Below, piece by piece: positions 11,142 to 57,199 of a stretch of DNA of 64,000 nucleotides. The notes under the pieces are model-generated. The model was given only the letters and a program-made list of their open reading frames with translations. It did not search any database and was not told the origin of the DNA. The first letter of the stretch is position 1. Every line of letters begins with the position of its first letter. The translations under genes and the position numbers were made by a program. The DNA lies in contig JANJGN010000034.1 in the NCBI GenBank assembly GCA_026770705.1, positions 6,820,001 to 6,884,000 on the forward strand, in the 5' to 3' direction. The DNA comes from Isurus oxyrinchus (lineage: Eukaryota).

Positions 11142-11168
11142 GAGGTGAACTGAATCAATGCAAGAAAG
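11142..11168 (+). CDS. 27-nt phase-1 micro-exon A of coiled-coil gene (xGELNQCKK)
   Basis: ctaat branch-like motif, atttatttcag acceptor, exon GAGGTGAACTGAATCAATGCAAGAAAG, donor gtaaat; paralogous to the exon at 16931. Confidence 0.7.
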
Positions 11169-11229
11169 GTAAATTAAAGCTAAAAAAAATCGAAGCCACA
11201 ACAATATAAGCTGAAGGTCGAGTCTTCTG

Positions 11230-12170
11230 CATAATTAAAAAAAGTTGTTCCACATCAACTTCAGTTCCCCCACTCTCGTAATAATCTTTATCCCCTTAGC
11301 ATTGGAAATCTATCAACCTCTGCCTTCAACATACTCAGAAAATCAAGTTGCAAGGCCGTCTACCATCGAGGGTTTAGAGGAGTCATACAGCAGGGAATGG
11401 TAAATGCCTTCCCATTTCTCACCAAAATGGTCATCCCCTTATTCTGACACTGTGGTCCATTGTTCCGGTTTGTCCAGCTAGGGTACTCATTTTCTCAGGA
11501 GCTTTACTATGTATTTCCTGCGAAATTGGTATGTGCCAATTAGATTATAAGTCATGTTTTTAATTCCCGTGATATGTAGAACCGTTCTGCTTAATCTTTC
11601 CTCATAGTGCTACCGCCATTGCCAGATGATCCTGTATATTGAGCATATGTAGCACTTCCTCAGATGCACTATGTGCTTCTGAGGAAAGATGACGAAAAAC
11701 AGCGCTTACTACTCCAGATGTGTTCTCACCAGAAGTCTGTATATGTCTGCTGCAAAGCTTACTTAATCAATTTCAAATATGCTTGTAACAGTAGCAAATA
11801 TTTAATATCAGTTCTAATTGCTTGCTGCATTTCGATGCTTACTCCCTGTGCACGTCCAGGTCCAGTTGAAAGCAAACAGTTGCCCATCCCTCCGCATTTC
11901 CCAAATCATTGTTTTATGTACGTCCTCCAAAAGTGGATAACTTCAGCCTTTAGCACGTGGAAATCTATGTCATGTTATTGCCTGCTTACCCAAGCTGACT
12001 CCCCATCCCTGCAGCATTTTTGCGTCAATGCCACTGAAATTAGTATCGTCAGCAAACATGATAGTTTACACATGGCCCTTTCATCCAAATTATGAATATA
12101 GACTGCAGATACCTGAGGTACCAGTGCTGCTACTTGTCATCGCCAGTTTGTTATAAACTGCCCATACAAT
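11230..12170 (-). mobile_element. CR1-type LINE 3' fragment
   Basis: Resembles reverse-strand CR1 3' end/RT (aatctatcaacctctgccttcaacatactc…; tcgtcagcaaacatg). Confidence 0.55.
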
Positions 12171-12689
12171 CCCCAGCACATTGTGCATGTGACTAGTGTA
12201 TTTTCCGAAAGTTATATCATTGCTCACTGTAGAGTTTAACTAAAAAAAAATAAAATGGTACTTGCAGCTCGGAGTCACGCTTGTGAACTGAAAGAGCTTC
12301 TGTGCAGCATTTTCTTCCCACCCATGTTTGGCCTCCCCGATGTAGGGAAACAGGTTGTTACCAGCAAATTAAGTATAATGAATTGAAAGATGAACAAACA
12401 TTCAGCTGTTCAATTGGAACGTATTTTGGTGTTTTTTCTTAAATGGAAAGGGAAGGGTTAAAAATAACCATTGGTGCAGCAGCTCCTGTGCTGGATTTAC
12501 AACTTGCCATACAAAGGTGGGGCGGCTTTAGCGGTGGACTCTGTGGTGAACCTGGGCGCCATAGAGTTAATGTCCCATTGTGAATGTTGAACAAGCAGAT
12601 AATGAGATGATATGCATGGTGATCGCATCCGACTGTATTTGGCAGACACCGCAGGTGATGACTATTTCATTATTGAGGCGTTTACGCCT

Positions 12690-14530
12690 CCTACCTATTG
12701 ATTAAGACCTCAGCTGTAGTAATGCGCAGTTCTTGTCGCTGCAATTTCGGAAGGATGTAAAGGTTTTGTTGACAATGCCAGGGACATTACAGGAAGCTTT
12801 CCAGGAACGAGATACTTCAGTAATTAAGATAGATTGGATAGGTTTGAGCTCTTTTTGTAGGATAAAAGAATGTTGTACGGAGTTTTGAAAGGAGGTTTCA
12901 AAATCATGATGGTCATGAACAGAATAGCTAGGTAGAAACTATTACCTGTGCCCACTGGCAGAAGGATTGGTAATCAGAAGGTACACAGTTAAGTTAATTG
13001 GTTAAAAAAAAAAACAAAAGCGATATAAGGGAGACATAATAAACGCTTTCTTGTAGAAATCAGGAGAATTCCATCAGGTGAAGTGTTCATTCCAAGGACG
13101 TGTGCAGGCGCTATGGACCAAATAACCTCATGTTGCGCTGTAACATGTTGGTGATTCTGTGGTTCTGTGAATGTGGCATGGAAAATGAGGAAAATGGAAA
13201 TCATATCGTAGGTTTTGGAGGGATCATATTGTTTTTTGATCGCCTATCGACATAAATTATGATAGAAAAGTCGAGACATGCAAGGGGAGCTTCAGAGATA
13301 AACCATGTGAATTTGAAAGAGGTGAAGGTAAAAGCAAAACAATGACATTTTTCACTTCAACTCGAGGAGCGGAGAGAGCAATGATCATATCATCAATACG
13401 ACAGATAGGAAACAAACAGGGTGAGTGTGAGAGTGTGAATAGCGGTAACAAAAAAAAAAACATGTTTCACATTTCATGTTAAAATGAGAAGCATTGCTAT
13501 GATTCATGGAGATAACCAGAGCAACAGTGTATACCTCGAGAAGGTTAGGATAATTAAAACTGCAGGCATTAAATGCAAGGATAGTTTGCACGACGTGAAT
13601 GAAGATTGCTCTGAATGGGGATTGGTTTGGCCTGCACTCAACAAAGCAATGCAGAGCTCTGAAGTCATCTGTATGATAGGATGTAAATATTGGTTGTGAC
13701 TAATGAAAAGGAGACGGTGATGGTTAGGAAACATGACACTGCAAATTGTTGATTGAAATGAGGAGATATGGATAAAAGCAGAAATTCATTTTGGAAGGAC
13801 GGGAAAAATCACCTGTGATCGGAAAGTGAATGCTCAGTGCAGCAGGAACTGACAGTTAGTGTGGTTTTAATGGGTGACACAGTTGAAACCATCCTTTTGT
13901 CGATACACAGCAAGAATAGCATATACTTGACATTCACAGCAAAATGGAACAATGCAAAATTATCATAAGACTGTAATAAAAAGGAGTAGAACCGTCCATT
14001 TGTCCACTCGAGCTATTCTTGTCCACCCAGTAATATGGTGGCCGATCTAGTGCTAACTTTCCTGCTAGTTCCCCTTAACTTCCATCAATCAAGCATTGGA
14101 CCTACTCAGCTTTGAGTATTTTCAATGACCCTTGGGAAAGAGAATTACAAATGCGAACAACCCTCTAAAAGAAGGCAATCCTGATCATCTCCAAATTACA
14201 TAGGACGCCCTTTATTTAGAAACGGTGCCCCCGAGAAATAGAATCTCCCATGATAAAAAAAAATTCTCTCGGCATCCCACTAAAAGACCCCTCAGAATCG
14301 TATAGTGTTCTATAAGAGCATATCTCATTGCTCAAAGCTCCATTGAGTATGAATCTATCCAGCTCAATTTTACCTCATATATCAACTTGTCCAACCAAAA
14401 AATCATCCTAATGTGTCTTCGCTGAAAAGTGTTCAATGCAAGTAGTGTGCCTCCTTAAACATGTTGACTAAAACAGTATATAGTACTCTACATGTGGTCC
14501 CATCTATTCCCTGCACAGTTGTTGCATGCC
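12690..14530. mobile_element. Mixed CR1 fragments (+ 12690-13050; - 13960-14530) and other decayed repeats
   Basis: CR1 C-terminal-like RPxLEYCxQFWSP relic at ~12705; CR1 3' end on the reverse strand from ~13960. Confidence 0.45.
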
Positions 14531-14617
14531 CAGGGCTACATTATGCGGACATGAGTGGCTGAAATTCCTGTTTCTGTGCTGTATGATTCTATGACTCTAT
14601 TAACATTTTTTTTCCAG

Positions 14618-14653
14618 AACTGGAAGTTGCAAAAGCAAGTTTAAAAGAAACGA
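14618..14653 (+). CDS. 36-nt phase-1 micro-exon B (ELEVAKASLKET)
   Basis: ttaac + T8 ccag acceptor; exon AACTGGAAGTTGCAAAAGCAAGTTTAAAAGAAACGA; donor gtgagg; in frame with A and C; same class as 20804 and 29261. Confidence 0.7.
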
Positions 14654-14681
14654 GTGAGGGAAAAATGTATAGATTTAAATG

Positions 14682-14812
14682 CTGTGTTTGCGCATTTGTG
14701 TATATGTACGCACGTGTGCGTGCCTTTGGGTCGGTCCGTATATTGGTGTGTGTTTGCCTTTACGCTTGAGAGTGTGTATGGGAGAGTGGAGAAAGGGAGA
14801 GAGAGAGAGAGG
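14682..14812. repeat. Degenerate (TG)n followed by (GA)n microsatellite
   Basis: Directly visible dinucleotide runs. Confidence 0.7.
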
Positions 14813-15159
14813 GCACAGAGAGTCCTATTCCGCTTATTTGCTCATATCCTCGAAATAATTTTACAGTATAAAAGGCTGGCCAAAGGACTCACAACATTTG
14901 CAAGCATTTGCAAAATCACATAATCCGTTACGGGGCCACAAGGAGCAATTGAACCGTCTCTTTGTAGGAGCTGGCGAATTAGGACAACGGCCATTCCATT
15001 TTTAAAGTGTTGTTGAATCATCCTCCTTTGGCCTCACAGAAAGTTCATCCAGCAAACCTCATTCCCGCTTATATATTTATCCCACATGATGCAAATTAAT
15101 TTTCCATGCTGGGAGACGTTAGCTTCCTGATAATTTCATTACACGAAGAATCAAGAGAC

Positions 15160-15497
15160 CAAGGTTAATGCTCCAGAGAAGCATTTCATCTTCCATCATG
15201 GTAGAATTTAAATTCAATTCGAATCTCATCAATGGTGATCATGAATCGAGCAGCGATTGTTATGAACATATATTATTCACCAGTGCCCTCTAGGAGAGGA
15301 GACCTACCCTCCTTCTCTGGTGTGGGCTGCATGTGACCATGGGCGCACAGTCATGTGGTCGGCAATTAATTACTCACTGAATCGCCTAACATAAAAATCA
15401 GCTGCAATGAAGATACGAATAGCTAAGAAATACGGGCCTTTCAAAAGGCACCTATTTAATTAATAACAATAAATAATGATAATAATAATAATAATAT
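15160..15497 (+). mobile_element. tRNA-derived SINE fragment ending in an (AAT)n tail
   Basis: Similar to copies at 30045-30450 and 38415-38790; (AAT)n run at ~15460-15497. Confidence 0.55.
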
Positions 15498-16930
15498 AGA
15501 AGCTACTTTTCATTTGCCGATTATGCTACAAATATGCATTTTAAGAATAATTTAGTCAGTGTACCCCGCTTTATGTCATTTACCCTACCAAAATTTTTTA
15601 TCAGCTCTCAGCTGCTCATGGAAGCTCGATTACCACTGTCAGAAAAGCTGATTAAGTCAAATCCCTGTGAGCCGGATAGTGATTTTCTAAGTTATGCGCA
15701 GCATTTTCAATTATTGCTTATTATCTCTCTAGGTAAACGTAACAGCATAACAAATCGACTTTACTCCCACTGCCCCAGAATCTGACTTCAGTGAACTCAA
15801 GCCTTTGCAAAATTACCCTCGCCAAAGTTGCTTCACCGCTCTTTAAGTTGCCTCAGAAAATGTTCAGGGGAAAAAAGGAACTGAACACAAAACCTTCAAA
15901 AGTAGTCAAATTAAAATAATAGTTTATTTACCAAAGAAATCACGTTTATGGTAATTAAATGCTTATTAAAAATTATGTCAATGAGGAGCGGCCATTGGGC
16001 CAATATTCCACTTGTGGGGCTTCAGAAAGCGCAACGTAATTAGTTCCACGCCGCGAAAAGATTCCTGCAGCCTTCCTTTGATTTTCATGATCCAAGTTTC
16101 ATTTTTTGAAAAAAAAGAAAAGAAATTGATAGATTATCGCTTGTCATCAAAATGTCAGGCAGTGTGTCATAGCAACTTTATATAACAGAAATGTGTCTGC
16201 ATCTGCCCTGGCTATATTTTGCCAGTCAAATTAAATCAGAAGTGTTTTACGACAGATAAAACTGTTAGTGTAAGCCATCCTTTTTCCCTATTTTCACAAT
16301 CAAAGTTAATTCAGACATTTAACATCTCTCAAAATTTAATTTCCTCTTAATATCTGCTGCATTCAGTAGAAAACTTACAAACTCTCTGCTCACACCACAT
16401 AATTAAAATGTTCATCCGTGTACCATTCTCATCAAAATCACCATCAAAAACCTCGCCAAAGCTTTTATATTTTGTTATAGTGTTGTGCCAATAATTGTAC
16501 ACAGCACTGTGGACGAGGTTCTTTTAAAAAATCTGCAGCAGAATTTCCATAATTCTGCAACTTGTGCCTTTATTTATAATCCTAGAAATTTGTACGCCTT
16601 AATTACCAATTATTTCTTTTCCTGATCCCGCAGAGTGATGGAAACTTGTACTTCGAAAACAGTGTTACACTATATTGTTCCAAAGTCATACCAATTTGGT
16701 TCCTTATTAATTGCTTTTTGAGAAAGTACCTGAAGCTGGATGAAACTCGGGGCGAATATTGTTAAGCAGTATATTTTGGGGTTGTAAGCAATTTCCACAT
16801 CCCATAAATAATGTAAATTTCAAACGACTCCCGGACATAAATTTCAAATCATTTGCTTGAGATGCATTTTGGATTCTTAGCAAAAACGTAACTGCTAATT
16901 ACTATTACTAATTATGAATTTTCGTTTCAG

Positions 16931-16957
16931 GCGATCAGCTGGATGTATGCCAGAAAG
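16931..16957 (+). CDS. 27-nt phase-1 micro-exon C (SDQLDVCQK)
   Basis: ctaat…ttttcgtttcag acceptor; exon GCGATCAGCTGGATGTATGCCAGAAAG; donor gtatgc; Leu and Cys positions conserved with exon A. Confidence 0.72.
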
Positions 16958-18089
16958 GTATGCTTTCTGATTTCTGGACGATTTTTTCCTGATTTTCTGC
17001 ATTACATTTTGCAGGAGAGAACATTGAACCTCCAGTATTGAAAGAGTTTATATGCATCAAAGAATGTTCCTCTCACTTAAACCTGATAGAATAAAAGTCA
17101 ATGTCAGTATGTTCAATTAATTGCACCTGTCAAATTCGACTCAAACACCCCTAGAGCTAATAAGTTCAAAATTGCAAGTGGTGATTGGTACAAAAGATCC
17201 GCATCAATTTCTGCCCCATCTGTAACTGATTGTGTTTTATTTCTGGTTCACTGTTTTGAACTCTCCAATTTAGCCTCTTGTTATCACTACTCGCAGTACA
17301 ATCTCATCTATAATGGAGACTGCAAAATCAGAACGGATGACTAGTTTGCAGAATACCACCACTAAGCACAGAAGAAAGATAAATAACTCATGATTTAATG
17401 CCATTGTAATATACTACCTTGTTCTCAGACTTGTATTTCGGGCCTCGGCATGCTGTTCCGGTGAAGTTCAACACAGGCTGGAGGAAGAGATCTCCATCTT
17501 CCCATTAGGTATTCAGCAGATTACTGGGCGATAAATTAAGTTCTACATCTTCAAGTCATAAACTATACACTGTACGTTGACTACTATTTTCAGACGACAG
17601 TTGGGATCTTATTCTCATGGTGTCGCTTTCAAACAGAGTTGTTCGCTAATCTGCAATTAACACTGCTCTCTGGATCAATGCTTTGTTTCCTTACAAAATC
17701 TATTTCCAGTGCATCTTTTGTTTGTTCCATGGCACCTTTGACATTTAAACTCTTCCGCCCCCTAACCTGCCTAAGATGATGTTCTATGCCATCATTTTGC
17801 TTTCAGCAGCATTGAAACGTCCACATTTCTGTCTTCCTTCAGGTCCAAAAGACAGTTCTATTCTAGTTCAATTGTCATCTCTCCTCCTTTCTCCACAATG
17901 CTGGCGTTATTTTCCTTTTCTTTAAATTCAGTTTTCCAGAATCCACTGCACTATACTTGTGCTTGCGAATTTCTCTGGCTGCATCGTTAACACTAATGGC
18001 TTGTGTACAATCAGAAAGTTAAGAAGGAATGGAACTGGATGCATCACCCATTATTGAAAAAGTCACCGGATACGATAATGGCAAACTCA

Positions 18090-20200
18090 ATCGAGTCAAC
18101 ACTTCAAGATCCTCCTTTCTAACATCTGAGGCCGAAAGCAAATCTTGAGAGACCTTTCTCGCAGACTGGTTAAGCAACGGCCTGACATAGTTGCACTCGC
18201 AGCATCGTACACAGGAGACAATCTCCCAGGCACCAACATCACCATCCGTGGGCATGCCCTGTGCCACCGTCCGGACGGACTGAGCAGAGGTGAGCACCGT
18301 AATATACAGTTTTTAGGCAATTGCCTAGGGGGCCCTCAACACCCACTCCAGACCACCTGAATTTGCACACTGTCAGGTTAAATATTGGCAAGGAAATCGC
18401 CCGCTGATAACCACGTTATGCCCTCCCTTTCATACTAAACCATCACTTTTCCATCTTGAACATGACATGGAGGAAACAACGAGGCTGGCAGTGACACGGA
18501 ATGAGCTCTGGATTGTTGACTTCAATGCCTATCAGCAATAGAGACTCGGTAACACTGCTGCAGACTGAGCAGGTGGAGTCCCAAAGAATATATCTGCAAG
18601 AGTTGTCTGTGGCAGGTGGTGAGGGAACCAAGAAAGGGGAAAAAGTCCAATTTGACAAGATATTCAGCAGCCTGCCAGCCGCAGATACAACTGTCCATGA
18701 AAATGTCGGTAGGAGTGACCATCACGCAGTTATTGGGGAGAGGAAGCCCCATCTTCACATTGGGGATATGGTGCATCGCGTCGTGTGGCACCAGCACCGA
18801 TGTTAAATGGGATTTATTTATAACTTACCTATCAACTAAAAACCGGGAGAACAGGAGGCTCATGGGACGTCAGCAGTAGCAGATTTGTGTTGAGCCACCA
18901 TTTGTAAACTCATGGCCCGACATATGTAGAACTCCCCCATTAATGCCATGGCAGATGATCAACCCTGTTTAAATGAAGACTGAAAGAGGGTCTGTCTGGA
19001 GATGCATCAGGCATACTTAAAAAGGAGGCATCCAATTGCTCAAACTACAACAGAAGGCTACTTTCCTCCCAAACAGCATACAAATCAATACGTCGACATT
19101 ATTAAGCAATTCAATGACATACAGATCAAATTTACCCTCTACAGTACGGCCAGATCAATTCGTCAATGCTGGTGGACAATTGAGGAACTTACAGGAGGGA
19201 GAGTCTCCATGAGTCACTCAGCTCCCGACCTCATCACAGCTTCTCTTTCAAAATAGGCAAAAGAGATGAACTCAATGATGTGAGAGTGACTGCTCTTGAT
19301 GTCGTCAGTGCTTGGCCGAGTGCAACATCAAGAATCCCTAACAAAATTGGACCAATGAGAATCGGTGGTCGGGGGTGGGGGGGGAGGTGGGGGACCTCCA
19401 CTCTTTGTAGCAATACCTGTCAGAAAAGGAAGATGGCTGTAGTTGCTGGAAATTAATAACTTCAACAGCAGGACATCACGAAAAGTGATCCTCGGGTTAG
19501 TACCCCAGGACCAACCATTTTCCGTTGCTTCATCAATGCTCTTCCTTCCATCATAAGGTTAGAAATGGCGACCTTCGCTTACAATTGCACGCATATCAGC
19601 AGTGTTTGGATCTCCTCAAAGATTGACGTTGTCCAGGTTGAAATGCAGCACGAAATGGAAATTATCAATGCTTGGAGTAACCAGTGGAAAGTAATGTTCT
19701 TGCCACGCATGTGCCGGGCAATGACCATCTCCAGCAAGACAGAATCTAACCATCTCCGCTTGAATTTCATAGGCATTGCTATTGGTATGTCCACCACAAT
19801 CAACATCCTGGGGCTACCATAGGCCAATAACTGAATGGGACTAGCCATATCAATACTCCAAGATCAGGTCAGTGTGTAGAAACCCTGAGGTGGGTAATTC
19901 ACCTCTTGTCTCCCAAAGTCTGTCCAACATCTACAAGATACAATTAGGTGCCTGATGGAATAGTCTCCATTTGCCTCGATAAGTGTAGCTCCAACTGTGC
20001 TAAAAGAAGCTGGAGGCCATCCAGGGCAAAGCTGCCTGCTTGATTGCCACCTCATCCAGCAGCATATACTCCCTCCACCACCGACGCTCAGTTGCAGCAG
20101 CGAATACCAATGCAAGACGCACTGCAAGAACCCCCAAGCCTCCTTGAACAGCATCTTGCAAACCCACGAACATTACCATCTAGAAGAGCAAGGGCCGCAG
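18090..20200 (+). mobile_element. Decayed non-LTR retrotransposon (APE endonuclease + RT; AFDRVWH-type, CR1/Jockey group)
   Basis: KQRPDIVALAASY…ITIRGHALCHRPD (APE N-terminus), VGRSDHHAV (APE SDH), VTALD… at ~19286 and GxVPxGPTIFxCFIN RT relic at ~19495. Confidence 0.75.
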
Positions 20201-20803
20201 AGGATGGTTCTGTTGCAAATGCGAAATTGTTTGGCACTATTTTGGAACAGAATAAGCCATTAAATCCCAAAAATGTTCAGCTTTTTCCACGAGGTCATGA
20301 ATGGTCTGTGTCCTTAACAATAGTTAAGAATATGTGACCATGCATGTTATCTTTAGATAACAAAACCTTTCATTTTAAATGTTTTTCAAGTTAATTTAAA
20401 ACAAACCAGACAATTGCTTATGCAAGACGTTTCACCATTGTGCTGATGATAAAATTAGAATGATATGATTGTGTTGATGAAAGAATAGGCAATGAAAATT
20501 ACTGTGGCTTTCCAAAATATCAGTGAAAAGAGCGATATCGATAAATTGTGATGGGAATTGTTATGGCGATGTTAGGCATGTTAATGAATAGAATGATGAG
20601 CATTTTCGTTATCCGTATCTTCATAATTCTATTCACAATAACAAAACTTTGCTTTATTTAATTGACAAAGAAAATGTTCTAATACAGAAAATCATTTAAC
20701 ATTCAGCCTCAGATGTAATTGCAAACCTGGGTGCGGGAAATGAGCTGTTCCTGTGATCAGAATATCTGGGTTGTATTAATGGTTTCGTTCTGTCTCATTT
20801 CAG

Positions 20804-20839
20804 AGCTGGATAATGCCAAGAAAGCTTCAGATGGCTCAG
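20804..20839 (+). CDS. 36-nt phase-1 micro-exon D (ELDNAKKASDGS)
   Basis: tgtctcatttcag acceptor; exon AGCTGGATAATGCCAAGAAAGCTTCAGATGGCTCAG; donor gttatc (weak); near-identical peptide to exon F. Confidence 0.72.
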
Positions 20840-21379
20840 GTTATCATGCATTAAATGTTAATGGAAAGGAAAATAGCCTTGTCCAATGTTGCTCAATCTG
20901 AATTATAACTGGGTTAACATTCATAAGTTTTTGTTGATGCCGATGCAAATTACTTTTGGGCTGGGCATATAAATTATCCCCTTTACTCTCTTGCCCAAAG
21001 ATAAACCTTGTCACATTTATCCATAATGTATGGAGTACACCATTGGCTAATGTTGGATGATTTAAATGTGCGTAGAATTTTGGATAGAAGAATAAGACTG
21101 AGTATTAGGATTATCTTAAGCCTAGTAAATACTTGATAATTTTTTTTAACAGGCTAAAATATGTAAAAACATATTGCAAGAAAATCTTTAGTGTATTGAA
21201 AGAAAAATAATAGGTCAAGTAAACGTTGGTCCTTTGAGGCAGAGACAGACAAAGGGATATGGACAAAGCGAAATGGCAACTGTGTCTGGACAGTATGTTA
21301 TGTGTGTCTCCATTGTAAAATATATAAGCCCCATGCCAGAAGCTAAAGTTTTACTGCTGGCAATATGCAATTTAGTCAT

Positions 21380-22930: not shown

Positions 22931-23074
22931 AGGTCTGCATTTCCATTTGTGATTCTATTCTTTGTGCGTTCTTGTATACTTATGAATTAGCATCATAAGT
23001 TACAAATCTGAATAATTGCCTGCTGTAACTAAATGGCTACAAATCATGGACATTATAAAAGCGAATCACGATTT

Positions 23075-25030: not shown

Positions 25031-25049
25031 ATTTAATAAAAGTAAAACA

Positions 25050-26897: not shown

Positions 26898-26924
26898 AAG
26901 ATAAATTGAATCGCTGCCTGGATG
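26898..26924 (+). CDS. 27-nt phase-1 micro-exon E (EDKLNRCLD)
   Basis: Long pyrimidine tract + tttacag; exon AAGATAAATTGAATCGCTGCCTGGATG; donor gtaaaa; L..C pattern conserved. Confidence 0.75.
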
Positions 26925-29260: not shown

Positions 29261-29296
29261 AACTTGATAATGCCAAGAAAGCTTCAGGTGGTTCAG
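29261..29296 (+). CDS. 36-nt phase-1 micro-exon F (ELDNAKKASGGS)
   Basis: ttctttctcgtttcag acceptor; exon AACTTGATAATGCCAAGAAAGCTTCAGGTGGTTCAG; donor gtagtc. Of the 4 differences from exon D, 3 are synonymous. Confidence 0.75.
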
Positions 29297-44200: not shown

Positions 44201-45479
44201 GGGTCGGGAATCTGAAAATCCAAAATTACCGCAGTCATGGTCTCCCGCCTTTAGAATAGAATATAATGCTTTATGTTTCACGGCAGAATACTGCCTTCGC
44301 TCTTTTCTCTCTCCCTCCCTTCTTAAATAGTGCACTTATATTTGCAACTTACCAAACTGAAGGAACTATTCCATAAATTAGACAATTTTAATTGATGATC
44401 AGGTAGGCATCCGATTTCTAGAAATCCACCTGTTTTAACGTTCAGTGATGTCGATCATCCATCAAGGGGGTATTTATAATCTTCCTCTCACATTGACTTC
44501 TACAGTGCTATTTTTTTTTCGAATGCTGACGTTTTTCACATCCTCATTCCCACATGTTTCTTGCCCTTCTGTTATTTCCAGAATGTTTTTTGCATCATCC
44601 TCCAGGAAGGCAGACACCAATAAATAATTTAGCTTCGCTGTCATTTCCCTATTCTTCCTTTTAAATTCTCCTCAGTCAACGTCTAAACTATACACATTTT
44701 TCGAGGAAGATCTTTATTTTTTTTTACATACCCCTAGAAGGTTTTGCTGTCCGTGTTTATCTTTCTTGCTCGTTAATATTCATATTGAATTCTAAAATTC
44801 TTTATCGGTTTCTTGGTCCCCCTTCTCGGTATTCTAAAATTCTCCCAAACCTCAGTTTTACTACATTTTTTGGAACATTTGTAAACACCCTCTTTTGACC
44901 TAATGCATTTTCGCATTCCATCGTGACAGCTGTTTAATCACTTTGACTGCTGCTTTTTTTGTGCCATAATGGAATTTAAATTTGTTCCAAAACAAAGAAT
45001 AGCCTCTCTACTGCCATATCTTTAAATGTATTTCCCAATCTAATAGTCATTCTCCCACCCCCACCCCCATAATTTCATTGCTTCATTTAAATAGATTTAA
45101 GACTCTAGCTTTCGATTTAATGTGCATCGTTTTCAAATGTAAGTTAAATGCCATCATGTTAATTTTATGTTTTCCTAAAGGGTCCTCGAAAACATATTTC
45201 AATTATTCATTTCTCGATGCATAATACTAGAGCTAAAAAAGTCTATACCTCCGGTGGCTCATCGAAAGTAAACCATCTCATGAGTATCCTAATATTCCAT
45301 TTCCAAAGCATAAGTGCTTATTAGATTCGTCAGTGCCAACTGTATTTATAAATTGGTTGCTGTCGAAACGGCAGTAGCTGGGCATCTGTTGTCTTCATGT
45401 ACAATTCTTTGGTTGAATACAACCGACAATCCATCATGGAGTCTGAAAAAGCCCATTCCATGAATTTTGATTCGCAGAC

Positions 45480-47650
45480 AAGTCTTTTATGTCCATGGTA
45501 ATAAAGCACAGGAATATCCAATGGGCACGACATTTCGCCTGAAGCTCGCTCCCAGATGACATGGTATTAACTGTAATTATTTGCATTCCATACAATCGTG
45601 GGTAGTAAATTTTATATAACATACTGGTCACAATTTTAAAATGGCAAAGATTGGCAAGGAAATTTCCTGCTGTCTACCATCTACTGGCAGTCCCACTCTA
45701 CCTCACCCGCCCTCCGCCACCGCCCAGTGACATCTGAGCTGAGGGCTCAGTGCTTTTCCATTATGAGCAGCAGTTGGAAGAAGCACGTGGAGAGGCAAAT
45801 GGACCAAAAGCTCTGCTGGGGAACTTTGTTGTCCGTCACCAATTATAGCATGATTGGAAGCATACTTCCTTAACTGGCTGACTCTTAAGATATGCTGCCA
45901 GACTGGGGATGTTGCAAATACTGAGACAAACAATAAAAGGGAAAACCCTATTTGACCTTGCCTTCACTGATCTGCATACTACAGATGCATCTGTCCCAGA
46001 TTTTCTAAAAGGGACCACGGTAGACAAAGTTGTTCCTTCCTTTTCAGGAAGCCCTCCATCGTATTTTGTGATACTACTTGCTGAATGGCATTGATTCACC
46101 AGATATTGCAACTCTAAGTTGCACATCCATGAGGTGTGATGGGCCATCCACAACAGGGAAATTGTGGACAATATCAACCTGTAGGCTTATGGACCCCTCT
46201 CTATCATTATTAACAAAACACGAGAGCAAGCCTGGTGCAATGAAGACATCAGGAACGAATACCAGGGTCATTGTAACTAAAATGACGTGTCATCCTGGTG
46301 AAACTGCAACATTGGACTGGCTGCAAAGCAGACTCAGAAAACAGGAAGCACTAGCCAGAGCTAAATGATTACACTGCCAAAGGATGAGGTCTAAGCCCAG
46401 CAACCATAACACATCCAGTCGTGAATGCTACTGGGAAATTTAACAATTCACTGGATTAGGATGTTCCACGAATATCGTCATCCTCAATGCTGAGGTGCCG
46501 ATCCCTTAAGAGCAGTGGATGAGTTTGAATAATTTGCAACAATCTTCAGCCAGAAGCACCGAGTAGATGATCCACTTTGGCCACCTCAAGAGTTCCCCAG
46601 CATTACAGGTGCCAGTCAGCAGCCAATTCGGTTCACTCCAAAAGATATCAAGAAGCAGCTGAAGATACATCATAAGTAAAATTGCTTTGGGGCCTCGCAA
46701 CATCCTGACAATATTTCTGAAGACTTGCTCTCCAGAAGTTCCCATGCCCCTAGCCAAGATGTCCAAATGCAGCTATAAGATTTATATTTACGTCACATTG
46801 TGGACAACTGTCCAGTTATGTCCTGGAGACAGAAACCAGGGAAAATCCAAACCGTTCCATCAGTCTACTCTCGATCGTCAGGAAAATGATGGAACCGTTC
46901 ATCAACAGTGTTAACAGGCGCCATTTGTTTAACAATCAGGTTCCCTTTAGAAGCTCAGCTTGCGTTCCGCCAGAACCTCTCAGCTCCTGGCCTCATTGCA
47001 GCTTTCGTTCATACATGGCCAAAGGAGCGGAATACCAGAGGTGAGGAGAGATTGACAGTAATTGACATCAAGGCAACATTTGACCAAGTGTAGCAGCACA
47101 GAGCCCTGGCAGACCGCAGTCAATTGAGATCAGGGTCAAATGTCTACATTGGTTGGGATCGCATCTAACACAGAATAAGATGGCTGGAGATCAATAATCA
47201 CAGTTGAATGACACCACTGCAAGAATTCCAGAGACTAGCGCTCTCGGTCCAATAATTTTTAGCTTCCATCATAACATCAGAGGTGCAGATGCTCACTGTT
47301 GTTTGCTCAACCTTCAGCATCATTCACGACTCCTCAGAAATTGAAGCAACAGATAACCAAAAGCACCAAGACTTGGATAATATCGAAGCTTGACCTGAAA
47401 GTAGCAATGTAATATCGTGCCACACAATTGTGAGGCACTGACCAGCAAGGACAAGCAATGGGCAATAAATGCTGGCAAAGCTAGCGAAATCCACATGCCT
47501 TGAATGAACAAAAAGTAACTACAACAACAAAGAATCTAATCCTCTCCACGAAGAATTGATTGACATGCCTATCCCTGAATCCCTCAATATCGAGATGCTG
47601 AGGATAACTGTTGGCCAGAACTTGACCTGGACTGGCCAAAAGTTATTCAC
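45480..47650 (+). mobile_element. Decayed LINE of the same family as 18090-20200
   Basis: GKTLFDLAFTD (APE C-terminal), LTVIDIKATFDQV (RT). Confidence 0.75.
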
Positions 47651-47761
47651 GGAAGCATCACTACATCCTCCTCAATCCTCATCCTCCCATGCAGCTTTGG
47701 GGTTCCAGCGATGCTAATTGCATTGAATGTAAAGGGACGAAGATTGGAATCTCTAACTCAA

Positions 47762-47858
47762 ACACACAATTACCTCGAAAAATTCATTAGGTCTGGCAGC
47801 ATCGGAGGAGAAGAAAAGAGTTGACGTTTTGAGTCCTCATGACCCTTCAACAGAACGG
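47762..47858 (+). repeat. Short, well-preserved shark Penelope-associated terminal repeat
   Basis: aggtctggcagcatcggaggagaagaaaagagttgacgttttgagtcctcatgacccttcaacagaac; longer copy at 56810-57180. Confidence 0.7.
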
Positions 47859-47861
47859 GAA

Positions 47862-48505
47862 TTGGAATCTCTGTTGTTTTGGTGGTCATTGTCTGGCACC
47901 TTTGTAGCATGTATGTTACTGCTCGCTTGTTATTCCAAGTCTGGAGATTGTTCAGGCATGGCTGGCAATATTTGGGCATGGACTGTGCGAGGAGTGGCCA
48001 ATGGTGCTGATTTATTGTGCAATAATCAGCGGCCATTCCCATGTCTGACATTATGATGGAAGGAAGGTCATTGATGAAGCAGCTGAAGATAGTTGGGTTT
48101 CGGGGCCTACTCTGCGGAAGTCATGGATGGATGTTCTGTAAGTGTGATGATTGTTTACAACAAGCATAACCATTATCCTTTGTGCCAGGTATGACACCAG
48201 CCAGAGGGGAGTTTCCACCTGATTCCCATTGACTCCAGCTTTGCTAGGGCTCCCTGATGCCACATTCGGTCAGGTGCTGCCTTCGTGTCAAGCTAAGTTA
48301 TGCTAACCTTACCTCTGAATTTCAGCTCGTTTGTCCAGGCTTGAACCAAGCTTGTCATGAGGTCAGGAACTGAGTATCCCTGGCAGAACGCAAACTGAGT
48401 ATCAATGAGCAGATTATTGCTAAACAAGTGTCAGTTGATAGCAATATTGTTCACACTATCCATCCCATTACTGATGACTGTGAGTGGACTGATTGGGCAG
48501 TAATT
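47862..48505 (-). mobile_element. LINE RT fragment, reverse orientation
   Basis: Reverse strand reads gacacgaaggcagcacctgaccgaatgtggcatcaggga ~ DIKAAFDRVWHQG. Confidence 0.75.
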
Positions 48506-48509
48506 GCCA

Positions 48510-49665
48510 ACAAGGCAACATTTTATGGATGTAGCATTAAGGAGCGGGAGCGAAACGTAACTCAGTGGGAAACGTGGTAAAGCTCTCCACTGGTTGTAGG
48601 TATTCCAAGCACAAAGGAAAATGGTTGTTGTTACTGGAGCTCCATTATCTCAGCCCCACTGCATCGCTGCAGGAATAACTCAGTGTAGTCTGTTAGGTCC
48701 AAAGATATTCAACTGCTGCATCAATGACTTTTGCTCCATCGTAAATTCAAAAGTGGGGATTTCCGATGATGATTGCACAACTTTAGAGACATTCTGCTGC
48801 CTCGCAGATGCTGGAGTACTACCTATCCATATCCAAAATGACAAGGACGATACTGAGACTTGATTTGTTAAGAGTCAAATAACTATCACGTCACACAAGT
48901 GCAAAGCAATGATGATCTCCTTTAGGAGGGAATCCAATCTTTTCCTTTTGATTGTTAATGGCATTAGGATCTCTGAATGTCCCATCATCAATATGCCGGG
49001 TTATAGATTTGGCACTGAAATAAACTGGACAAGCCATAAAATATGGTAGGTACTTGTCCAGGTGAGAGACTAGGAATTCTGTGGCGTGAAACCAACATAC
49101 TGACTTTCTAAAGCCTGACCATCATCTACAAGGCAGAAGCAATTACTGTTATGGTGGACTCGGCAATTGCCTGGGTGAGTGCAGATCCAACAACACTCAA
49201 GAATCTCAGCATCATCCACTACAAAACAGCCCACTTGACTGGCATCCTATTCACCCACAAACAACATTCACAACCTCTGTAGCTGATACACAGCGACAGC
49301 CGTACGCACCATCTACTGGATGCCCGGCAGCAACACACCAAGCCCTTTTCGACAGCACCTCCGAAATCCCCAAACTCTCCGACTTAGAAAAACAGGGACA
49401 ATAGATGCTTGGGGAAACAATCAGTTGCAAATTTCCCTCCATTTTACTTGCCATGCTGACTTGCAGCTATTCCACGGTTCCTTCATTGTTACCCTGTCCA
49501 AATATTGGATATGCCTTTCTAATAGCATTATAGTACAGTCATAGCTATACCTCATGGGCTATAATTGTTTTAGAGGTTGGATTACCACCCCGTTATCGAC
49601 GGCAATTACGGAAAGGCAAAAAATGCTGACTCAGCCAAAGATGGCCATATCATGCAAAATGAATA
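48510..49665 (+). mobile_element. LINE RT to 3' tail, same family
   Basis: AGITQCSLLGPKIFNCCINDF…GISDDDCT (GVPQGSVLGP…FADD relic); 3' tail at ~49600-49665. Confidence 0.8.
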
Positions 49666-49699
49666 TTAGTCGACATCGAAATTAATTTTGTGCAGATGG

Positions 49700-52600
49700 A
49701 AAGCAATTTACATTCATAACAGCATGTCATCCGCCCGTCCAGTGCCTAGCAGGAGATTGAGTCTTGCACGAAGCTTCCAGGTGTTTATTTGTATCCCCAT
49801 TGCACTTTCCCCACATTTGTTTCCAGTAGTCATTTTGCTCTCAGCTAATTCGGAACAGCTTTTCATTGTCTACCTTATCTGAATAATTTCTGATCACGTT
49901 CATCGCTGTCAATTCCCAGCATAATTTCGATCACTCCCTAGAGAACTGGTACACGATATCCAACCTAACAATTGACCAAAAATACCTCAGCATTTGAACC
50001 GATCCTATAAATTAGATTTGCATCCTCTCAAAGTCACTTCTGTCTTTCTGAAATCCTGGTGAGTAGATCTGGACGAAAACAGCCAGTTGTGCTATAATCA
50101 GAGATTTATACCGATTCAGCATAACGTTCCAATTTTTGCACTCAATAAATATGTTGAGGAATCTCAACATAGCATATGAATTGCACACTTGTTCTCAATT
50201 GTTCTTCCACTTCCAAAGTTCTACCCACAGTAACACCTCGGCATCTCTGTGAGGTGAACTTTTTGCAGAGTTTAATTTCGCTTCCTTACAGATCTCTCAC
50301 CCTATTTTATTTGTCAAAGCGCTTCACATCAGGCATCCCAACATTACATTATCCCTGCCACGTCTCTTCTCATTATGATAGCCTATCTATGTTCAGTTAT
50401 CAGTTTTTCGACACTAACCTCACATTTGACAACATAAATAGGTTTGAAACATTGGCGAATCTTAAAATTAGAAATTATATTGTTAGATTCTGCATAATTA
50501 TATATTACAGAAACTAACCCTAGCTTTGAAAGCAGAATGACACAATCACGAACCCTCCATTTGAAAAAAAAATACCTGTTGGTCCATCTCTCTGCATCCT
50601 AATGTTTAATGACATTTATAAAAACTGACAGTGGCCCTCCTATCTCAAAGGAATATGTTTGCACTAACCATCCTTTTATATGGTAATTAGGCAATTGTCT
50701 TCTTAATTTCTAAATAGACACCGTCTTTCTATTCAATTACGCTCTTTGCGATGCATAATCTGAAAGAAGCAGTACCAGGCTGATGCAAATTTCATCTGGC
50801 TCTCCTTAATTCACTCAAACCACGTCAAGTGCCTACAGAATTTTTTTTTTTTCTCTTTAGCGTATGTTAACTGTAGGTCACGGACGCCAAATTGAACAGG
50901 CTGTAGTTGCTGCACATGACGTTACAGACTCAAAGGGTGCCACATCTCCCTCTCTCCTTCCCTCTGGAATGTGTCTTACTTCTCGAGAGGACTGGGTGGT
51001 TATTACAAGCCATTCAATTTAATGCATTTGCACAACCAGACAGTATAAACCTGATGAAATATCAACTCTAAATATTTTTAGTTGATATTGCCCATTAATC
51101 CCCTCCTGCACTCCAGCTATTATCCCTGATATCTCCACTATATCCAGCAGTCTGTGTTCATCTTCTTACTTCACCAACACCGCTGCAAATTATTCAGCAG
51201 ACTCCCTGGCTTTGTCCTAAAAGAATCACCTTTATTCCACTTTTACGGGTAGTGTGACATGCACCTTGCACCATACCCTTTTTGGAAAATCTTGTTTTCT
51301 ATCTCCAACCTCAAGCAAAAGTCTCTGGCTTTATTTTTCTAGATTATGCATTGTTTCTTTATAGTGTTTTGGTGTCAATCTTTAGGACTTGTTTCAGTGA
51401 CGAAATCGCCTAATCCCTTAGAAATTAGCTCTTTTCCAACTTTAAAATTTAGTTTAGGTTACACGTGGCTCTCCTGTGTTGCAGTCCTTTGGAAGCACAA
51501 TGTAGCACTTTTTACTTGGTGCCTTCCCTCACGCAATTGGGGCAGATTTCTCAAAAATCCTGAATAAATCCCACTTGCAGCATGCCTCCAGCCACAGAAT
51601 GAACCTCCCTAACTTTCTGTTTATACTCTCAGTGTAGCTTGGCCTAGTGTATTCCTAGGATGTGTATTTTACGTCTTTTTCTCAGTCTGGAAGATGAGAC
51701 ACAAAGGGGCAGCCATTGCTATTCCAATTCCAGCAATGGTGGAGACTATTTTTAAACATTGTTACTATAATTTATTTTTTCTGAGCCAACTCCAATACGC
51801 TTTACCTGGCGGCTTTGGAAATTTATTCGTGTCCATCAATCCAATCAATGCATTTATTCCTCTTGAAAATCCCAGTATTATAACTGACTATCTTGTAACC
51901 GAAGTCGAATTAAAACCCTTATTTTGAAACCTTACAATTCATTCTTTTCAGGCTAGATACCATATGCAAACATAATAACTCACAAAAAAGAGGAGCACGA
52001 GAATATCCACAGCTCTTCTGTGCAGAGAATTCCAAAGTTTCATGACTTTTCGAGTGAAGTTATTTCTCCTCCTTGCATTGCGACATTTTCATCCCCATAT
52101 CCTGAGACCTTTCCACCGTGTTATAGATTTTCTTACCTGCCTAGCATGTAAAGAACGCTCAGCATTTTATAACTTTCGAATATACCTTTTCTCATTCTTC
52201 TAAATTACAGAAAGTATTGGCCTCAATAACTGAACCCTTCAACATGGGACATTGCCATCAAACGTGGAACCAGTTATATGAACCTTCCCTCTAAAAAGCT
52301 CATGTATCCTTCCCAAAGTGTGGAGATGCATACGAGAGGATGCATTCCAGATATAGCCTCAGCAATGATCTGTAAGATTTTAAAGAGACCCGTTTATCAT
52401 AGCACTTCCGTCCGCTTGCATTAAAAGACAATAAGCGATTTTTTTTTCGTAATTGTTTACTGTATGTGCATAACAACTTGTTGCATTCAGTGTTAACACG
52501 CCCATTTCCTTCTAAGTATCAACATTTACAATTATCACAAAATTTAAAAATAGGCTTTTAATTTTCAGTTCTTACAACAACAGTGAATATTTTGCAAGCA

Positions 52601-53420
52601 CCACATTATATTCCATCTACCACCTTGCTGCCGACACATTTAACCTTGCCATAGCTTTTTGGAAACATCTTTTGTCCACACCAATTACTTGTAATGTCCC
52701 TACATTTGTATCATAAGCATACTTGAGCACATTTATATCTTTCCATTAGCCTAATCATTAATATAGAACATAAATAGGTAAAGTCGCAGCCAATGTCTTT
52801 ATGGCATTCCCCCATCAAAGCCTGTCAGACTGAAAATACCCTGTTTTGCAATTCGATTCGTTCTGAAAGTAACCAATGCTCCATCCATACCAAGATTTTA
52901 TCTCCAACTCCATGAGTCCTTCCCTTTACTATTAACAATTTGCATATCCTTATGTTTGAATTGCTTTTGGCCATCCAGGTATACAATGTCAACTTGTTCC
53001 CCAATCAAGATTTTAAGTTTCCTGCTTTCTCTTTCACTTCTTTCTTGAAAAGCAGCGTTCATTTGCCAATTGTCTAATGAGACGCTCCAAAATTTAACTG
53101 CTTTTGGAAAATTATTGCAGTCTCTATCTCTGCAGCCATCACTTTTAACAATCCTAGAGTATAGATTAACTTGCCCCAGGTATGTGTCGTATTTTAGTCC
53201 TTAAATGTATTTATTGTTTCTCTCTTCTGATTTTAACTGCATTAATTGGATCACACTTGTTAGCACCGAGCTTTCCCTCGTTTACTGCTTTGCAATTTGT
53301 GTGATCTAACGTTGTAACAGAAACAAAACATTTAACTAATGCCTCTGCCATTTCCACATTGTGCATAATAATTTCCTCTGACTCTCTGCTGTTATTTTCA
53401 AGCTAATAATGATCTTCTTT
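49700..53420 (-). mobile_element. Decayed CR1-type LINE fragments
   Basis: Reverse-strand CR1 3' end and RT similarity (e.g. 52020-53400). Confidence 0.55.
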
Positions 53421-53789
53421 TCGTCCAATATAACCCTAAACTTCATGGGAATTCTTTTTTGGACATATGTGCCTTTGGGCAGCACCCTCTGTGACTGAGC
53501 AGCACTCGTCAGAATTCAATCTGCTAACTGAAATGTGGAGAGGTCAATATAAGGTTCCATGACAATAGATTTTGTCTGTTGCTTTGGGCTAGTGAGCCAT
53601 AGCTTTCGAAACCTCCATCTTTATGGTCCAAAAAAACCTTTAAAGTTTGAATTTAAAAACACTGAAAGTCAATATCGGGACTGGTAATCCGGAACGAGGA
53701 ACTGCATTGAAAACACATGACCTGTCATGAACCCAGACGGACATCACTCCCTCCAATCTAAACCGTTGCCTTGAGGCGTGCTAATGATG

Positions 53790-54530
53790 GAAGAAACAGT
53801 AGATAACACGTTATGCGTTGGAATGATGCAATGTGTGCCGTGACACAGTTATCAGTGCTGGGACCTCTACTGCTTCTAAATTATTTTAATGAGTTGGATG
53901 AAGGGAATGAAGGGATGGTTGCCATACTTGCTCGCCACTCAAACATAGGTAGGTAATAAGCCATGGAGAGTGGATAGGGCGCTGCAAACATATAAAAACA
54001 GAATAATTGAGTGGGCAAAGACCTTGCAGATAACGTGGGGAAATGTGAAATTGTCCGTTTTTGTTCGGAAAAATAAAAATCAAACATGTTGTCTCTCCGG
54101 TGTGAGATTGCAGAGCTCTGAGTTGTTAAGGGATCTGGGTATCGTAATGCATTAATTACAAAAGGCTGCAATGCAAGTACAGAAAGTAATTAGGAAAGCT
54201 AATAGGGTGTCAGCATTTATTGCGAGCGGAAATGAATACAAAAGTAAGGAGGTTACTTTTCCGTTGTGCAGGGCATTAGTGTGGCCACGTTAGGAATACC
54301 GTGTACAGTGCTGGTCACCTTATATAAGGAAGGACTAATAGCTGGAAAGGGTATGTTGTCTCACGAGGAAAAGCTGGGCAGATGTTGTTTGTCTCCGCTG
54401 GAGTTTAGCAAAGTAAGAAGCGAATTGATTGAATGATATAAGATCCTGAGGGGCCTTGACAGGGTGGAAGAGTAGAGGATGGTTCACCTTTTGGAAAAAT
54501 CTAGAACCCCGGTCTCCTGTATGCAAAAAA
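53790..54530 (+). mobile_element. CR1 LINE RT fragment
   Basis: tcagtgctgggacctctactg…aatgagttggatgaaggg ~ SVLGP…NDLDEG; EWAKTLQ and RDLGIVMH motifs. Confidence 0.8.
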
Positions 54531-55070
54531 GTTAACGGACCACGAAGGACAATGGTAATGTACAATTCGAAGGCGGCCACAGTAATTTTTTATTGCCCTG
54601 TGCATTCAGTTTCCAAGACTCCCCAGGCCTATTCCATTCTATGTACAGGACGCTCGGACTGTCCTTGAACGTAAAGGGCATTTTATAAAAATAGTGTTTA
54701 ACAGTGTCTCCAAAAGTGCAGTAACTGTTCGCTTTAGATGGCAGATAAGATACTCTCATCAGAGTTTCTGACAGATGTTATTCCCAATTCCCACCCAGAG
54801 TGATATCATTGCATTAACTTCTGAGGCCAGATCTTCCACGCCTCTTCTTTTTAAGTCATTGGGGTAGTGAACCTCTTTGAAGGCCATAAAATGCTAATTG
54901 TCGGGCGGTGTTCAAAACTGATTGCAGTACCCAAAGATCAGTTCCTAATCTAAGTATGCACTTTAAGTGTTCATTTACTCATTGAAACACAAGTTCTGTT
55001 GTATATTTCACTGCATTGCCAAATTTAAGGCTTGTGTATTCTAATAAATAAACATGTCACTCCTTTACAG

Positions 55071-55097
55071 AAAACAAGCTAAAATTGAAAGAGGATG
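55071..55097 (+). CDS. 27-nt-class micro-exon H (ENKLKLKED), last or penultimate coding exon
   Basis: ctaat…tcctttacag acceptor; AAAACAAGCTAAAATTGAAAGAGGATG then gtaatt; ExKL…D pattern of exons E/G. Read-through gives GN-stop (TGA at 55103-55105). Confidence 0.6.
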
Positions 55098-55129
55098 GTA
55101 ATTGACTAAAACGTTATTTTTATTTGCAG

Positions 55130-55143
55130 AATTGAAGATTTGA
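55130..55143 (+). CDS. Candidate terminal coding segment ELKI*
   Basis: ttatttttatttgcag acceptor, phase-1 AATTGAAGATTTGA; starts EL like the 36-nt class, but lies only 32 nt after the exon H donor. Confidence 0.35.
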
Positions 55144-57180: not shown

Positions 57181-57199
57181 TTTTTTGAAGCCTAACTAT

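Follow-up and report, generated by a model that had tools for sequence, protein, structure and literature searches.

A putative megabase-scale micro-exon gene of Isurus oxyrinchus predicted to encode a coiled-coil rod ending in a B30.2/SPRY domain

Introduction

Which described systems come closest to a gene in which micro-exons encode heptad repeats? The enterophilins of the guinea pig combine a long leucine zipper with a B30.2 domain, and they are not known to carry an Ig domain. An enterophilin-SNX1 interaction has been described (PMC13749957). Chicken BG genes carry Ig-V and TM exons together with about 27–38 heptad exons, and they lack a B30.2 domain (PMC5938342, PMC4046983). Butyrophilins carry heptad repeats and then a B30.2 domain (PMC4046983).

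Here we analyze a 64,000-nucleotide stretch of the cartilaginous fish Isurus oxyrinchus (contig JANJGN010000034.1, hereafter C34, forward-strand positions 6,820,001 to 6,884,000), which we call the window, together with the surrounding DNA. Like chicken BG and the "zipper protein", a soluble BG tail, the locus encodes a long coiled coil in many split-codon micro-exons (PMC5938342, PMC4046983). As in BG, 21-nt heptad exons are used, here at least 10 at the 5' end, and a tandem cluster has been reshaped by unequal crossing-over, with exon number varying among genes. Unlike BG, the shark locus spreads at least 168 exons across 1 Mb, most of them in a 27+36-nt (three-heptad) module with a core Cys; it ends in a B30.2 exon, and neither an Ig nor a convincing TM exon was found. 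In butyrophilins (BTN/BTNL), short heptad exons likewise precede a terminal B30.2 exon, but there are few heptads, their Ig and TM exons were not found here, and the shark B30.2 belongs to a separate cartilaginous-fish clade. TRIM E3 ligases differ in that no RING or B-box match lies upstream in the DNA searched. The likeness to the enterophilins is one of architecture, namely a predicted two-part protein with a long heptad rod and a B30.2 domain; an enterophilin has ~45 heptads, whereas roughly 380 are predicted for the shark gene.

Results

A preliminary description of this DNA had reported seven AG..GT-bounded micro-exons, and all seven are present on the + strand, 27 or 36 nt in size, in phase 1, and splicing without a stop to the peptide given there: A (27 nt, window positions 11142..11168), B (36 nt, 14618..14653), C (27 nt, 16931..16957), D (36 nt, 20804..20839), E (27 nt, 26898..26924), F (36 nt, 29261..29296) and H (27 nt, 55071..55097). 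Exon A is identical in a tandem paralog on C34, with both splice sites kept; the paralog copy of B is intact; C has 96% identity to the paralog vs 82% in its flank; and E, which is AG/GT-bounded, was also compared with the paralog. H lies in a stretch that is not alignable to it. D opens an internally duplicated unit of ~8.4 kb, and F is its duplicate, the two sequences differing, as first stated, at 4 nt, 3 of them synonymous. Absent from the preliminary description are 36-nt exons at 26154..26189 (paralog intact), 34200..34235 (acceptor lost at the aligned paralog site) and 42952..42987 (a profile match), and, past its end coordinate, a 36-nt exon at 59967..60002, placed by profile and paralog comparison, and a 27-nt exon at 60291..60317, whose donor the paralog has lost; all are on the + strand. 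An E-type 27-nt exon at 36179..36205 (+) is dead, its donor being TT here vs GT in the paralog. The window has 12 intact micro-exons in the size order 27,36,27,36,36,27,36,36,36,27,36,27. Strict alternation of 27 and 36 nt, as first claimed, fails here at the 36,36 runs and survives as a trend over a longer range; likewise, the extra exons mean that the proposed unbroken heptad register across the window would require exon skipping.

Much of the DNA at 20–44 kb, which had been taken for transposable-element debris, consists of three diverged tandem copies (20239..44143, + strand, 63–75% identity) of the ~8.4-kb unit, each carrying 36+36+27-nt exons and the third partly decayed, so that it is not transposable elements only. 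Window position 20688 was rejected as an exon, its acceptor being absent in the paralog. The stop-bearing 14-nt piece at 55130-55143 was rejected as a terminal exon; it follows H after a gap of only 32 nt, and the array goes on.

How far does the array extend? Of a 1.04-Mb span, 670 kb were read, and they hold 168 phase-1 exons of 21, 27 or 36 nt on the + strand vs 2 on the − strand, and extrapolation to the full span gives ~260. On the basis of exon profiles and a B30.2 exon, the inferred gene occupies the + strand of C34 from 6,459,146 (at least) to 7,496,962 and encloses the whole window (1..64000). The first 21-nt exon, at C34:6,459,146, is 361 kb before the window. At least 10 such heptad exons lie at 6.459–6.527 Mb, with nine of ten seeds scoring 22–38 in leave-one-out comparison vs a minus-strand best of 5.8, and they are followed by exons that mostly alternate between 27 and 36 nt. 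A 9+12-residue module had been proposed in place of the 21-nt exons of BG; this describes most of the gene, but the 5' part uses BG-like 21-nt heptad exons. The window lies in the middle of the putative gene, the array continuing for ~600 kb beyond it, and is not the C-terminal tail first envisaged.

A sliding identity-peak scan proved too noisy for defining exons. A self-trained profile, with which 3,236 AG..GT windows on the + strand and 2,984 on the − strand were scored in 464 kb around the window, gave 130 exons above the best minus-strand score, 65 per size. None of the 130 contains an in-frame stop, whereas 97 and 53 do when read in the two alternative frames. Exon size switches at 109 of 129 steps, where permutation gives a mean of 65 (p = 1e-4); at the 20 steps where alternation is broken, the heptad register stutters unless exons are skipped. 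The 130-exon splice has a single junction stop, from 6,775,808 to 6,779,334, because a weak 27-nt exon at 6,778,018 fell under the threshold.

The encoded pattern is that of a coiled coil. Among 44 alternating 21-residue units, positions 4, 11 and 18 are hydrophobic in 97%, 88% and 86%, respectively, and Cys is present in 61% at position 14 and in 27% at position 7. Leu fills one heptad core position and Cys the other, and a 28-exon alternating run has a periodicity peak of 3.5. The initial idea of a Cys-studded coiled coil, encoded by micro-exons in a 9+12-residue module in a cartilaginous fish, is borne out. The predicted rod has roughly 380 heptads; coiled coils rise ~0.15 nm per residue, and the full rod would measure roughly 400 nm. 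The protein is expected to dimerise.

Comparison of 47 aligned exon pairs between the window copy and its paralog shows purifying selection on the exons. Exon identity is 0.857 vs 0.803 in the flank (p = 5e-5), and exon dN/dS, which like every dN/dS against the paralog is an average over both branches, is 0.49 (p = 2e-5). The acceptor AG is kept in 42 of 47 pairs (background 66%) and the donor GT in 40 of 47 (background 59%); because both copies went into training the exon profile, these conservation tests are mildly inflated. A splice site has been lost at 9 of the 47 aligned paralog sites, and the window copy has at least one dead exon. Exons have been gained and lost through internal duplication and splice-site death. 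The paralog array was read continuously into its B30.2 exon, which is preceded by exons of 24, 30, 21 and 27 nt. At the 5' end the paralog carries 241 kb more than the window copy; ~8 kb sampled within or at the edges of this extra DNA held no micro-exon, and the 21-nt-exon pattern had no match in the 241 kb, at a sensitivity of 3 of ~11 such exons in the window copy.

The preliminary description saw no B30.2 exon downstream. This is correct inside the window, but an intact terminal B30.2/SPRY exon lies 612 kb past the window end, at C34:7,496,442-7,496,962, with its frame open, AATAAA signals after it, and before it the same 27-nt exon as in the paralog. Between the array and this exon there is no further B30.2 of the family. 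The paralog exon, 92% identical to that of the window copy, matches Pfam SPRY at 1.8e-13, and dN/dS between the two is 0.45. Five B30.2 exons of this type are clustered on C34. A midpoint-rooted tree built from 45 hand-picked B30.2 rows places 16 chondrichthyan rows in a clade of their own, split 100/100 from all BTN, ERMAP and TRIM rows; within this clade the branch of the window copy is 0.12 vs 0.024 for the paralog. Among solved structures, BTN3A1 B30.2 domains come closest (E = 3e-28). A 7-row alignment gave an AlphaFold model too poor for use (pLDDT 33).

The database members of the clade that were scanned with Pfam show coiled coil and SPRY only. In the elephant-shark (Callorhinchus) RefSeq model XP_042192744.1, of 1,697 aa and named "nuclear-pore anchor-like", a B30.2 of this type follows a long coiled coil in which the 36-nt exon profile is matched 7 times (shuffles: mean 0.55, maximum 3). 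The 27-nt profile is not enriched in it (9 matches, p = 0.12), and its N-terminal 230 residues have no match in the I. oxyrinchus genome. Similar coiled-coil plus SPRY models are XP_038668997.1 and XP_038672308.1 of Scyliorhinus ("TRIM39-like"), XP_069775385.1 of Narcine and XP_055510696.1 of Leucoraja. These models share the B30.2 clade and a similar pre-B30.2 segment, and those scanned with Pfam have no Ig or RING; unlike the shark gene, they are shorter, with misleading automatic names, and none has hundreds of 27/36-nt exons assembled. A search for longer homologous proteins at 1e-20 found none among 610 candidates. A profile search gave 88 matches, mostly generic TRIM/BTN, with XP_038668997.1 the sole close-clade member.

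What precedes the 21-nt exons? In the DNA searched, which included the whole 63 kb from the B30.2 of the previous gene to the first 21-nt exon, tblastn with 250 proteins, shark BTN and TRIM among them, gave no match to an Ig, RING or B-box exon. The Ig-V of a shark BTN, used as a query, has 44 genome matches, none at C34 2.7–7.5 Mb, and the BTN-like Ig exons of this genome are mainly on another contig, C21. An exon scan of 6.397–6.485 Mb yielded no convincing TM exon, only a signal-peptide-like first-exon candidate at C34:6421428-6421476, with an ATG, 16 hydrophobic codons and a phase-1 GTAAG donor, which lies 38 kb before the 21-nt exons begin. In both copies the first 21-nt exon itself contains an in-frame ATG. 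A 102-nt candidate at 6,453,948, a donor at ~6,455,522 inside an apparently decayed retroelement frame, and 6,460,332 as an exon were rejected, none being kept in the paralog. Upstream Ig-V and TM exons had been named as a check on the BG/butyrophilin assignment. That likeness was a useful lead, matched by 21-nt exons at the 5' end and a 27-nt exon plus B30.2 at the 3' end, but family membership is unsupported, because no Ig-V, Ig-C or convincing TM exon was found and the B30.2 stands apart from true butyrophilins, shark ones included.

Discussion

The exon anatomy, the frame symmetry, the heptad pattern and the intact B30.2 exon are plain in the DNA. We propose, as the probable explanation, that the locus is one ~1.04-Mb micro-exon gene for a two-stranded coiled-coil rod with a B30.2/SPRY domain, probably an intracellular spacer or tether. 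First, the run of phase-1 micro-exons would be spliced into a single transcript, of which the window exons would form the middle part; we infer that it includes all exons, 65% of the span having been read. Second, the predicted protein would be a two-stranded rod of up to ~2,700 residues with the B30.2/SPRY domain at its end. Third, the rod would space or tether a pair of B30.2 binding heads inside the cell. The Ig and membrane parts of butyrophilins are probably absent. The least certain elements are a cytosolic site, with the in-frame ATG in the first 21-nt exon perhaps serving as the start codon, and a cytoskeletal or membrane-trafficking role, suggested by analogy with the chicken zipper protein and enterophilin.

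Could a short hydrophobic first exon instead lead to secretion or membrane anchoring of the same rod and B30.2, whose core Cys would link the two chains by disulfides in a stiff extracellular fibre? We regard this as unlikely. Cys is concentrated at one core position, three RefSeq relatives begin with ~14–17 hydrophobic residues, and a duplicate of the 6421428 exon near 7.5107 Mb is still hydrophobic and retains both ATG and donor after 6 residue changes. However, local background identity is 84–86%, so the kept ATG and donor are unremarkable; the exon lies beyond the duplication junction (~6.4336 Mb), where its homologue is DNA downstream of the gene rather than the paralog 5' region; it is 1 of 8 ATG-plus-donor candidates in 62 kb; T-rich DNA by itself codes hydrophobic residues; and the RefSeq model starts may be artefacts.

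It is rather improbable that the window copy is a decaying duplicate that lost its first exons and is silent or makes short products, its exons having functioned in an ancestor. The 241-kb 5' difference, the dead exons and the longer B30.2 branch fit such decay, and a dN/dS averaged over both branches could conceal it. Against this, the B30.2 frame is intact at its dN/dS of 0.45, the 130 exons are free of stops, and at 9 of 47 sites the window copy retains an exon lost from the paralog; moreover, at background rates, ~20% neutral divergence would destroy ~1/3 of AG and ~2/5 of GT sites. Finally, a true butyrophilin/BG receptor (signal peptide, Ig-V, optionally Ig-C, TM) with a huge cytoplasmic tail, or a RING/B-box TRIM ligase, would suit the butyrophilin-like order of 21-nt heptad exons first and 27-nt exon plus B30.2 last, the BTN3A1 structural match and the mostly unread 241 kb of the paralog, but is very improbable given that tblastn yielded no Ig, RING or B-box match in the DNA searched, and given the absence of all 44 BTN Ig-V matches from this part of C34, the 100/100 separation of the B30.2 clade from BTN and TRIM, and the SPRY-only domain content of its database members.

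The proposed gene shows the BG/butyrophilin-tail design at extreme scale: a coiled coil of micro-exons, with B30.2, enlarged ~tenfold within a lineage-specific family common to sharks, rays and chimaeras. Hundreds of 21–36-nt exons make such a gene nearly invisible to standard annotation; in databases, its relatives appear as short fragments under the names "TRIM39-like" or "nuclear-pore anchor-like". Titin has 363 exons; if transcribed whole, the shark gene would near that count by micro-exons alone, and would offer a natural test case for spliceosomal recognition of tiny exons amid kilobase introns. We found no published description in targeted searches of the literature on shark micro-exons, coiled coils and butyrophilin/B30.2. 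A bolder and doubtful extension is an ancient, undescribed cartilaginous-fish family of giant B30.2-tipped rods, with ~260 or more exons of 21–36 nt over 1–1.6 Mb and with length set, ruler-like, by adding, killing or skipping three-heptad modules; were the hydrophobic first exon used, the product would be a secreted, disulfide-zippered ~400-nm fibre showing B30.2 outside the cell. If this family reading is true, its members are among the most exon-rich vertebrate genes.

The five-gene cluster, with its visible exon births and deaths, makes the evolution of rod length measurable. Rod length may be tuned by exon turnover together with cassette splicing, every exon being a multiple of 3 and in phase 1. 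In three relatives, the isoforms modelled by RefSeq are distinguished by internal 9-residue cassettes.

Extent and composition of the micro-exon array

How far does the micro-exon array extend? The seven exons given in the preliminary description are correctly placed, with AG and GT borders, phase 1 throughout and no stop when spliced, and an exon profile built from them found further exons straight away. The window (G000:C34:6,820,001-6,884,000, C34 being contig JANJGN010000034.1) holds 12 intact exons of, in order, 27, 36, 27, 36, 36, 27, 36, 36, 36, 27, 36 and 27 nt, and its 20.2-44.1 kb consist of an ~8.4-kb unit in three diverged copies, each with exons of 36, 36 and 27 nt. The strict 27/36 alternation and the C-terminal tail proposed earlier are therefore not right; the array continues beyond the window both ways, and the B30.2 exon comes later, at C34:7,496,442-7,496,962. 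One exon is dead (window 36179-36205), its donor being TT here and GT in the paralog, the tandem duplicate upstream on C34.

The 464 kb around the window contain 130 exons, split evenly between 27 and 36 nt (65 each; median spacing 2.3 kb), all of which outscore the best minus-strand candidate. They are free of in-frame stops, whereas 97 and 53 of them have stops in the other two frames. The final nucleotide is G in 122 of the 130, and the two lengths follow each other at 109 of the 129 steps, against a permutation mean of 65 (p 1e-4). In the 5′ direction the array changes to 21-nt exons, the first at C34:6,459,146; the ten exons counted by the 21-nt profile also served to train it, and on leave-one-out nine of the ten seeds score 22-38 versus 5.8 for the minus strand. 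In the 3′ direction, exons occur in every sample taken across C34 7.085-7.425 Mb. Reading covered 670 kb of the 1.038-Mb span (65%) and yielded 169 exons versus 2 on the minus strand; by extrapolation, the whole span would hold about 260 exons and encode about 2,700 residues.

At C34:7,014,000-7,064,000 a ~7-kb unit with four micro-exons occurs in about seven copies that share about 80% identity, all with intact exons. Window 20680-20740, 60-120 nt 5′ of exon D (window 20804-20839), is intronic yet near-identical in the paralog, and is possibly a micro-exon splicing enhancer; a candidate exon at window 20688 was rejected, reducing the array count from 169 to 168. Reading through the donor of exon H (window 55071-55097) meets a stop after two codons. 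A good acceptor lies 32 nt past this exon and opens onto four codons before a stop (window 55130-55143); the distance is too short for a normal next exon, and a short isoform could end here.

A predicted rod with terminal B30.2 heads

What protein does the array encode? The paralog reads gap-free through exons of 24, 30, 21 and 27 nt to a terminal exon of 172 codons, which is a SPRY domain (Pfam, 1.8e-13). The terminal exon of the present copy is 92% identical to it, with an open frame and the same 27-nt exon before it, and no further B30.2 exon of this type was found between the two. Across 44 units of 27+36 nt (21 residues each), positions 4, 11 and 18 are hydrophobic in 97%, 88% and 86%, mainly Leu. 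Of the remaining core positions, 7 is Lys or Cys, 14 is Cys in 61% and 21 is Leu or Ser, and Glu and Lys are enriched at flanking positions; an alternating run of 28 exons peaks at period 3.5. Such a heptad pattern is that of a parallel two-stranded coiled coil, and we infer that the protein dimerises. We propose, as the probable though far from certain reading, a cytosolic dimeric rod that would set a long, adjustable distance between two B30.2 heads, its length changing as exons are duplicated, die or are spliced as cassettes.

A secreted or anchored fibre, zippered by disulfides, is the foremost alternative and is unlikely. A signal-peptide-like exon candidate (C34:6421428-6421476; ATG, 16 hydrophobic codons and a phase-1 donor) lies 38 kb 5′ of the first 21-nt exon and is kept in the duplicate near C34 7.5107 Mb, both copies being 3′ of a B30.2 exon. 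This exon is no more than a lead, since it sits beyond the duplication junction in DNA of 84-86% identity, and it may belong to the micro-exon family or to a neighbouring gene. The first 21-nt exon itself contains, in both copies, an in-frame ATG that is a possible translation start.

Tandem duplication and selection

The paralog lies about 1.1 Mb upstream, in tandem segments of 1.1-1.6 Mb (C34:4,827,800-6,433,500 and 6,433,700-7,519,900) with about 80% identity, also in non-coding DNA; two TE copies flank the junction near C34 6.4336 Mb. The 3′ ends are closer (84-86% identity; B30.2 pS 0.09), perhaps through gene conversion at a later time. Could this copy be a decaying duplicate? We consider this quite improbable. 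An alignment to the paralog was obtained for 47 of the 63 exons compared, with one site there counted twice and the profile having been trained on both copies; on this basis, exons are 0.857 identical versus 0.803 for flanks (p 5e-5), exon dN/dS is 0.49 (Fisher p 2e-5), and acceptor AG and donor GT are preserved in 42/47 and 40/47 pairs versus backgrounds of 66% and 59%. The B30.2 exon has dN/dS of 0.45. The paralog splice site is broken in 9 of the 47 rows, with stops in two of those; individual modules therefore die while the array persists, as the symmetry of the exons permits.

The paralog is 241 kb longer just before the first 21-nt exon (C34:4,850,373-5,091,193, absent from this copy; about 8 kb sampled). 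Young repeat copies (94-96% identical) at C34 about 5.823-5.827 Mb and 6.954-6.961 Mb have insertion places that differ between the gene copies.

Family and relation to known systems

Five B30.2 exons of the same type cluster on C34, at 2.71 and 3.47 Mb (minus strand) and 4.82, 6.40 and 7.50 Mb (plus strand); more distant ones are on contig C21. Exon-motif matches are nearly confined to C34 3.7-7.3 Mb (36/37 for one pattern, 13/14 for a second), and neighbouring genes therefore share the array. A midpoint-rooted B30.2 tree was built from 45 hand-picked rows, namely 8 genomic exons and 37 of 250 proteins. In it, a clade of 7 genomic and 9 database rows separates at 100/100 from BTN (butyrophilin), ERMAP, TRIM and fish SPRY-only rows; scanned members carry SPRY as sole domain, and one C21 exon is near-identical to a basking-shark protein. 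Among named single-domain proteins in the databases, the best matches come from cartilaginous fishes. In Callorhinchus, a 1,697-aa model contains a long coiled coil with 7 matches to the 36-nt exon profile (shuffle mean 0.55, p 0.005) and no enrichment for the 27-nt profile, and internal 9-residue cassettes distinguish predicted RefSeq isoforms in chimaera, catshark and electric ray.

The preliminary description assigned the gene to the BG/BTN families or to an uncharacterised family, and neither Ig exons nor the phylogeny bore out the BG/BTN assignment: a tblastn search of the DNA read, which takes in all 63 kb from the previous gene's B30.2 to the first 21-nt exon, with 250 proteins as queries (shark BTNs and TRIMs among them) revealed no exon for an Ig, RING or B-box domain, and none of 44 genome matches to a BTN Ig-V query falls at C34 2.7-7.5 Mb. 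We consider it very improbable that the gene is a genuine BTN or TRIM whose 5′ exons went unseen.

In chicken BG genes, as described in PMC5938342, the Ig-V and TM exons are followed by a tail of about 27-38 exons, each of 21 nt, and a soluble form of such a tail displaces tropomyosin; according to PMC4046983, butyrophilins have a few heptads plus B30.2, and BG clusters evolve by unequal crossing-over. The predicted shark gene resembles their tail standing alone, about tenfold larger. Enterophilin combines a long leucine zipper with B30.2. Its link to SNX1 is described in PMC13749957. The accessible part of PMC12841164, on shark butyrophilins, contains nothing on a micro-exon/B30.2 family, and targeted literature searches found no paper on such a shark gene.

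An Ig-V-like exon cluster occurs on C34 at 13.1 Mb and 15.7-17.6 Mb, 5-10 Mb from the micro-exon genes. A large TRIM/BTN cluster occupies C21:82-118 Mb, where B30.2 exons number well over 100 and are accompanied by a group of BTN-like Ig-V exons; it includes two divergent-clade members, at 89.7 and 91.3 Mb.
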